From assembly GCA_976551045.1 (NCBI GenBank), contig CDPCPM010000010.1:17050001-17114000 (forward strand): a DNA stretch of 64,000 bases, given 5' to 3'. Source of the DNA: Glaucostegus cemiculus (lineage: Eukaryota). Below the pieces are notes generated by a model. The model was not told the origin of the DNA. It did not search any database and was given only the letters and a program-made list of their open reading frames with translations. Positions within the stretch are counted from its first letter, which is position 1. Each line of letters starts with the position of its first letter. The position numbers and the translations under genes are program-made. This document shows, piece after piece, positions 46,721-48,689 of this stretch.

Positions 46721-47666
46721 AAACACCAATTAGTCTTTACTCTTATGAACAGCTCCAGATTCACATATGGAACACCACAAAAGTGTAGCCTACCTTCTGT
46801 CAACTCTTGGGAAGCCTGCATTCCAAGCAAATCCATGTGCTCCTGATGCCTTCTGCTCTGTACTTAATATGGAGATAAGTTCCATTCTACGCAAGTAGAA
46901 TTAATTCTCTCTGTGTCCAGCAAAGGGTCGCAACTTGTAAACAATTCAGCCTTTATTACCTGGAATGATTTGGTAGACAAGGAGTTCAGGCCAAATAGTC
47001 CTTATGTGAATGCAGAAGGTAGCAGAACTCTATAGCCACTGACTTAGCAACTTACCTTCTTTACTCATTGCTCCTTCAACAATTGGAGCTGGGTGCATGA
47101 CTTCTGAAAGACTCAAAGCAGAGGCTCTCCCGGCCAGAACCCTCCAATCTCTCTTCTGGAAAGGCCCCTTCCCTTTGGAATAAATCCTCTTGCTCCTATC
47201 AATGCAGGGGACTCTGCTAGATCACTGCATAAACACCCACTGTGGTCTATCTGACCCACTAAATTCTGCACTCAACTCCAGCTGACACACAACCAACCTG
47301 CAAGTGGTTAAGGATTTCATTAATTGGTGTAGACGTGGTCATGCTCTTTAGTTAAGATTTTCTTGTGTGGACCATGTTGTGCGTGCAATTTACATTTCCA
47401 TAATTCAACTTAGGCATTGTATGTTGTGCATGGATTGTGCACAATGTGAGTAATTTAGATGGAAGCTGCCTGTTGAACATCCCATCATGCCCGATTTGCT
47501 CTTCAGCATCTCATGGTCAATTTTGTGCAAAAAAAAGTCATGGTTAAAAAACACATAAACGTGTATTTGAATTTTTAAGTCACTTTTTCTTTGGTAAGAA
47601 AAGAAGAAGAAAGTTGGTTTTCTCTTTGGTGATTGCGTTATGGGTTTAAGCCCCATATTAGGCCTT

Positions 47667-48491
47667 AATCAGAATCAGAATCAGTTTTATTGTCACAACC
47701 ACATACATACAAAGTATGCAGAGGAGCGAGATACCGTCCTCCTCAGGTGCTCGTCCCATACAAAAAAATGACATAACAACCAACAGAGACACATACACAC
47801 TTGGCAGAATACATAGTATAGATCATTACACCTTAAAAGCTAAGGGGATTGAACTTAAATTCAGGATCGATTTATCGATTTTCACTTACACATATACATG
47901 TGCAGACAAAAACATCAAAACATTAACAGCCCCCCTGCCTCACCCCGCACCGACGACCACCTCCAACCCCCCCCAGTCCTACAACCTCAGGGCCCACAGA
48001 CCATCAACAACCTCCGGCCCACAGTCCGACCACCTCCGGCTCCTTCGCCTCCGGCACCACCTCCGGCCCACAGTCCGACCACCTCCGGCACCTTCGCCTC
48101 CGACTCCGCAGTCCGACGACCTCCGGCCCCGAACTCCGGCCTTGCAGTCCGACGACCTCCGACCCGAATTCCGGCCTCGCAGTCCGACGACCTCCGACCC
48201 TAATTCCGACTCCGCAGGCCGACCACCTCCGGCCCGAGCAGCCCCCTCACCGCCCGCATCCCGACGCCACCACGAGGCTCCCGGGCCTTCAAGACGCTGC
48301 CGCCTCCGATGAGCTCCGACGAGCCGTCGGAGCCGACAGTACCGACAACGACTCCATAAAACGGCACACAAACATCAGAACAAAGAACACACAAGAAAAA
48401 AACTACAGAAAAACACTAGAAGACTAACAAAAAAACACAAGGACTACAGACCTGGGAGAGGCCGCTGCAACCAGGTGCGCCGCCATCAGTC
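47667..48491 (-). mobile_element. Full-length non-autonomous LINE-type element (825 bp) with (CTGATT)n tail and internal CpG-rich minisatellite
   Basis: 5' GACTGATGGCGGCG (YY1-like), T-rich leader, repeats of cagtccgacgacctccgg, AATAAA then (CTGATT)3; flanked by a 27-bp direct repeat. Confidence 0.75.
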
Positions 48492-48518
48492 ATGGGTTTA
48501 AGCCCCATATTAGGCCTT

Positions 48519-48689
48519 AATCAGAATCAGAATCAGAATCAGTTTTATTGTCACAACCACATACATACAAAGTATGCAGAGGAGCGATATACCGTCCTCC
48601 TCAGGTGCTCGTCCCATACAAAAAAATGACATAACAACCAACAGAGACACATACACACTTGGCAGAATACATAGTATAGATCATTACAC
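48519..48689 (-). mobile_element. 5'-truncated second copy of the same element
   Basis: Identical to 47667-47831 except one substitution and one extra tail unit. Confidence 0.85.

Follow-up and report, generated by a model that had tools for sequence, protein, structure and literature searches.

A rare, one-off double insertion of a young retroelement lies in the 64,000-nt stretch of Glaucostegus cemiculus DNA analysed here (the window; contig CDPCPM010000010.1, positions 17,050,001 to 17,114,000). Two head-to-tail copies of a non-autonomous family are joined by a duplicated 27-bp piece of host target DNA, a layout that is not the family's normal way of spreading. We propose, with a probability of about 0.55, that both copies arose in one integration event, in which the reverse transcriptase (RT) of a partner LINE would have been primed twice at the same nick and would have carried out two rounds of reverse transcription.

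Both elements, with all their parts, lie on the minus strand. Read in that direction, the window sequence gives copy A, the 27-mer, four extra bases, copy B, and the 27-mer again. Copy A (48519-48689) is 5'-truncated; its 171 bp comprise a 147-nt core and a 24-nt tail, (CTGATT)4. Copy B (47667-48487) is a full-length non-autonomous element of 821 bp, with an 18-nt tail, (CTGATT)3, on its 3' side (47667-47684). The four extra bases at B's 5' junction (48488-48491) replace the family's usual (T)nAA. The 27-mer duplicate between A and B (48492-48518) is identical to the original copy downstream of the elements (47640-47666), at a spacing of 852 bp. A sequence-only reading of this DNA had described the head-to-tail layout with identical 27-mers, a single substitution between the copies, intact CpGs, and the lack of an RT, and each of these descriptions is borne out. 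Across the 147-nt core, a single position separates A from B (plus strand, T at 48588 in A and G at 47730 in B), B carries 58 CpG at an observed/expected ratio of 1.05, and B gives no match to the coding part of the partner LINE at low stringency, its longest sense frame being 131 aa. That reading also had the coordinates right; the element that it put at 825 bp is itself 821 bp long, 825 being B plus the four extra bases. Copy B has 0 private substitutions in 557 aligned bases, with a median of 1 among 62 aligned rows (one locus is counted twice in this set). Elsewhere in the window, positions 1-2000 resemble a CpG island, with a GC content of 59% versus ~41% in the remainder.

The 27-mer is ancestral single-copy host target DNA and not part of the element, since it occurs only at this locus and the orthologous contigs of relatives run through it. 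Its two exact occurrences in the 2.85-Gb genome are both at this locus. Contigs of two related organisms (X3 and X5) align across the left flank and the 27-mer, up to position 47668, and are ~92% and ~89% like the flank as judged from the listed differences. Beyond 47668, they run on unaligned for 124 and 1,351 letters, and they represent the left half of the empty site only; none of the contigs listed for the closest organism spans 47536-47666. The 27-mer adjoins both tails exactly, and its duplicate lies at most 4 nt from B's 5' end, which ties the duplication to insertion. The earlier suggestion that the 27-mer is a duplicated target is thus upheld by its uniqueness genome-wide and its presence in the flanks of relatives. 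The hairpin and palindrome that had been pointed out within it carry no signal: folding of the 27-mer is not above that of shuffled sequences (z -0.20 and -0.21), and the same is true of the element's head and 3' end (z -0.74 and -0.87).

The family comprises 892 exact 5' ends and 2,458 exact 3' ends in the genome. Other copies start at the GATGGCGG head, finish in the hexamer tail, and stand in unrelated flanking DNA. Of 30 unselected heads measured, 28 belong to full copies of 743-1183 nt, and the length variation resides in a GC-rich minisatellite of 35- and 49-bp units (48005-48240 in B) that varies among family copies. Copies display 5' truncations and variable tails, and the family has spread by retrotransposition as a unit. 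In 19 of the 30 unselected full-length copies (L066-L095), AAGATGGCG is preceded by a poly(T) stretch whose length ranges from 5 to at least 43 nt. There is no sign of a small-RNA-derived Pol III head: a simple consensus finds neither an A nor a B box in the element, and Rfam gives no notable match. Individual loci show further rearrangement. L045 shows an additional internal deletion, its head and minisatellite running straight into the last 69 nt; L179:1120-1780 holds three family 3' ends within 600 nt, and a 34-nt flank unit that is present ~5 times ahead of a 61-nt piece reappears beyond the last tail.

A LINE with ends matching those of the element, which the sequence-only reading had proposed to look for, is present in the genome. 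The 5' part of B (48183-48485) aligns to a 3.5-kb LINE copy, L321, at 67% over 309 columns (E 5e-23). The 3' part (47667-47861, ~195 nt) is 81% similar to this full-length LINE and 89% similar to a LINE piece in L035; the middle of B has no match to L321. The hexamer tail is common to the element and the partner. On these alignments, the element is a bipartite, ORF-less LINE derivative (SIDE), composed of the two ends of the partner LINE around a GC-rich minisatellite. The other long LINE copy, L320, is without the first part of the 5' end, and ten other partner copies walked upstream are all 5'-truncated. L320 and L321 are ~3.4-3.5 kb long and 95% alike, both have broken reading frames, and L321 keeps its 5' end. 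The partner's RT domain matches RVT_1 (E 2e-35 and 2e-36) with PF09004 behind it, a pairing that we take to mark Rex1/Babar. Upstream of the RT lie matches to Exo_endo_phos_2 (E 0.0018) and Exo_endo_phos (E 0.046), both below the curated cut-off, and a PDB search of this region gives no match. We call the partner Rex1/Babar-like, a name that comes from its motifs and from features given in a review (PMC6274825). Shared with the Rex1/Babar LINEs described there are the partner's RT, a conserved 3' UTR, an oligonucleotide tail, and copies that are mostly 5'-truncated, and the weak upstream APE-like region may be a further such feature; the window element differs in encoding nothing. Together, the scarcity of private substitutions, the family counts, and the partner LINE matches support the earlier view of a young, non-autonomous family that probably depends on a Rex1/Babar-like LINE.

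The junctions of copy B depart from those of its relatives. We surveyed 135 distinct 3' ends in loci L001-L155, 133 of them with enough flank; the set takes in the two focal copies as well as some LINE ends and segmental duplicates. The family's normal target duplications are 0-10 bp, and a flanking repeat longer than 12 nt is found in 1 of 133 junction pairs, that of copy B only. Next in length are the repeats of L106 (12 nt, one mismatch), L007 (12 nt, an artefact of the tail), and L042 (10 nt). Published target duplications are typically 3-5 bp in the L2 and CR1 clades, with those above 20 bp a minor class (PMC4245944), and the family's short duplications fit this pattern. At the 5' junction of copy A, no separate duplication is present. 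The B 5' junction is atypical: AA precedes the head in 27 of 30 unselected heads, and B is the sole one of 30 without any A. At the 5' junctions of L013, L034, L082, and L119, short repeats of the head's first letters or of the flank stand just upstream, like templated insertions. Variable 5' junctions with short target rearrangements are on record for R1 (PMC2718515).

General self-targeting or site specificity, one half of an earlier model for this locus, is rejected genome-wide. Tail pairs number 55 within 220 nt and 41 at 221-440 nt, and ~50 each are expected by chance; the survey covered spacings up to 440 nt and full-length heads at most 70 nt from a tail. A count of tandem copies places the focal layout in 1 of 892 full-length heads. 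A tail is followed by a full head within 70 nt at three loci (the focal locus, L034, and L035), with 0.40 expected by chance, and the count without the focal locus gives P = 0.06. At L034 and L035, the spacer between tail and head is not repeated. None of these three loci has a head within 20 nt of a tail end, where 0.11 would be expected. The genome contains 36,030 occurrences of the wider Rex1-type tail motif, and it was with these related tails included that self-targeting as a general property was discarded. Some local self-preference exists within the family's own 3' end, where nested joins fall at one offset in 5 of 55 cases (P ~0.001 after correction). Tails are joined there at two recurring points, which lie 10 and 18 nt ahead of CAATAAAA (L157, L159, L170 (= L007), L172, and L250; and L160, L167, and L180), and these joins are a mixture of nested insertions and short duplications.

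Adjacent tails elsewhere in the genome provide look-alikes of this locus. From the 96 close-pair matches, we examined 94 adjacent tail pairs, nine of which repeat at least 11 nt of flank after both tails; L261 (an element-only triplication) and L268 (a microsatellite) were set aside. In all nine, the downstream piece copies the upstream element's own end; seven are clean tandems and two are rearranged. Background tandem duplication, gauged from 197 kb and 315 kb of flank and from 1 and 2 events only, predicts 16-43 such loci. The nine are best read as ordinary tandem duplications, which call for no special mechanism, and the idea that tail-target-tail dimers form a recurrent class, which seemed real at 5/30 and then at 9/94, was abandoned on this account. 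The focal locus itself is not a tandem duplication, because the 198-bp block made up of A and the 27-mer, a repeat of B's own 3' junction, is placed at B's 5' junction, 654 bp from its twin. This non-tandem layout appears in none of the 94 other adjacent tail pairs. On the minus strand of L077 (2540-2620), a full copy with its tail is followed by 7 nt, a tail-only run, and the identical 7 nt; this arrangement may be the focal layout in miniature, and a plain slippage duplication also fits.

The tails and the one differing base bear on the origin of the two copies. Tail length is kept in both copies of 8 of 9 tail-spanning DNA duplications, and the focal tails are 24 and 18 nt. The sole core difference falls on a family-polymorphic site, with 44 exact copies for B's base versus 414 for A's; A's haplotype accounts for 414 of ~2,458 3' ends. 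The minor base, that of B at 47730, is the partner LINE's base at this site. It is found on many haplotypes among the aligned copies, so it is recurrent or recombined and no proof of two templates, and its value as a lineage marker is weakened by homoplasy. The LINE-type base (window 47730 / 48588) and a 30-bp deletion carried by B both recur on many non-autonomous haplotypes, suggesting frequent template switching or gene conversion among copies. Taken together, the tail lengths and the polymorphic site would favour two primings over a DNA copy.

The steps of such a coupled event can be laid out in cDNA order. Priming at the nick beside the 27-mer would have copied a full-length RNA, giving B as the first product. 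The end of the B cDNA, after four extra bases, would then have rejoined the target 27 nt back, so that the 27-mer was copied. Copying the 27-mer would have rebuilt the original primer end and allowed a second priming on a family RNA tail, likely that of a second RNA. Copy A would be the short product of this second round; its joining to the upstream flank would have left no duplication, the usual outcome in the family. We favour a coupled event over independent hits because the latter would have to strike exactly the same site and also produce a rare long duplication, and because close pairs are not in excess, no head at the three head-after-tail loci lies within 20 nt of a tail end, and repeats above 12 nt flank only 1 of 133 junction pairs. 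Two primings are preferred to a DNA copy because the tails differ (24 versus 18 nt) and the sole base difference falls on a polymorphic site. Against coupling stand the single locus, a head-after-tail count slightly above chance, and the family's partial local self-preference. Moreover, the locus was chosen for its oddity, which weakens arguments from rarity, and the order in which A and B arose cannot be read from the sequence by itself.

An unlikely but serious alternative is that A and B inserted separately, at different times, and that one of the insertions left a rare long target duplication. A may have come first, with B primed on A's microsatellite tail and generating a duplication of 27 bp (up to 45 bp with the tail); or B may have inserted first with the long duplication, followed by A at the duplicated site. 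The layout is that of a classic double insertion (PMC5932611), A and B differ in tail and at the polymorphic site, and L007 offers a precedent: there, a full copy sits inside a 5'-truncated one from another subfamily. LINE junctions with duplications longer than 20 bp are, moreover, a recognised minor class (PMC4245944). However, separate hits require one exact site in addition to a duplication seen in 1 of 133 junction pairs, close tail pairs are not in excess, and A and B are otherwise identical over 147 nt, and A's haplotype makes up 414 of ~2,458 ends. We consider it improbable, more so than separate insertions, that one cDNA was copied 1.2 times at the DNA level through a template switch, such that second-strand synthesis or repair began inside the cDNA, passed through the tail and 27 nt of target, and returned to the cDNA end. 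The 198-bp block, which repeats B's 3' junction at B's 5' junction, is what such copying would leave. In addition, B's 30-bp deletion occurs in seven other sampled copies, and all seven have A's (major) base, so B's base could be a later change. The differing tail lengths, unlike those of 8 of 9 DNA duplications, speak against it. Furthermore, aligned copies average 1.6 private changes per ~557 nt, which makes a later change on the sole polymorphic site with a known minor base unlikely without gene conversion.

An assembly artefact is very improbable. The junction of B, 27-mer, and A is taken from the assembly, but a doubled or collapsed read would give identical copies, and the two copies here are unlike in tail length and at one base, with four new bases at the junction. 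Least credible, almost to the point of dismissal, is the other earlier model, which makes the 27-mer part of an 852-nt RNA unit and has that unit copied 1.2 times from circular or concatemeric RNA (a pseudo-LTR arrangement, Penelope- or retrozyme-like). A partial copy, a full copy, and a short extension do resemble the layout of Penelope-like elements. Nevertheless, the model fails once the 27-mer is recognised as host target DNA: it is absent from all other copies and ancestral in relatives, which refutes the circular-RNA unit as a family property. The layout is found in 1 of 892 heads, and the partner is an RT-bearing LINE with a matching tail. An Rfam search of the element at E up to 10 returned 6 weak, unrelated matches and no ribozyme, with the proviso that minimal ribozymes can escape such searches.

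Should the coupled event be right, a broader possibility follows, which we put forward tentatively: a Rex1/Babar-type RT may loop back on its target, rebuild the primer end, and begin a second round on another RNA, with dimers as the result. If so, dimers with long target copies at their junctions would be expected even from a low-duplication family. L077 and some of the nine tail-flank-tail loci would then reflect such an event with an abbreviated first round, and loop-back re-priming would have a bearing on the way in which the 5' ends of LINEs are joined. Among the papers listed by a literature search on re-initiation of reverse transcription, none was relevant. As a single locus, the case carries little weight, double insertion being already described as a route to TE tandems; it is a clean fossil of complex LINE integration, and unequal exchange could start from its 198-bp direct repeats. 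The family, a high-copy bipartite derivative of a Rex1/Babar-like LINE, holds modest interest. Our literature searches turned up no Rex1-derived SIDE; Repbase and Dfam lay outside these searches and may contain the family.

Known systems offer three points of comparison. Tandem Alu insertions, reportedly described by El-Sawy and Deininger in 2005, are similar in that non-autonomous copies are inserted side by side at one target; they differ in using L1 machinery with routine 13-15 bp duplications. Among SIDEs, the sources named in the consulted parts of two papers are RTE, Ingi, Vingi, and R2 (Kojima 2018, PMC5786205) and, for Persaeus, CR1 Zenon (Wang 2019, PMC6740152); those parts do not name the Rex1/Babar clade. 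Such elements, like the present family, combine both ends of a partner LINE with an unrelated variable middle, lack a coding region and a tRNA-like head, and occur in many copies; here, the differences are a Rex1/Babar-like partner, a CpG-rich minisatellite middle, and 5' poly(T) on many heads. Closest to the locus itself are the TE tandems described by McGurk and Barbash (2018, PMC5932611), in which double insertion leaves the target within the junction, as in R1 copies 33 nt apart. These dimers likewise have head-to-tail copies, a target duplicated in the junction (33-nt rDNA duplications in R1 tandems), and differing 5' ends. Their target duplications are routine and R1 is site-specific, whereas the family described here makes duplications of 0-10 bp and is not site-specific.
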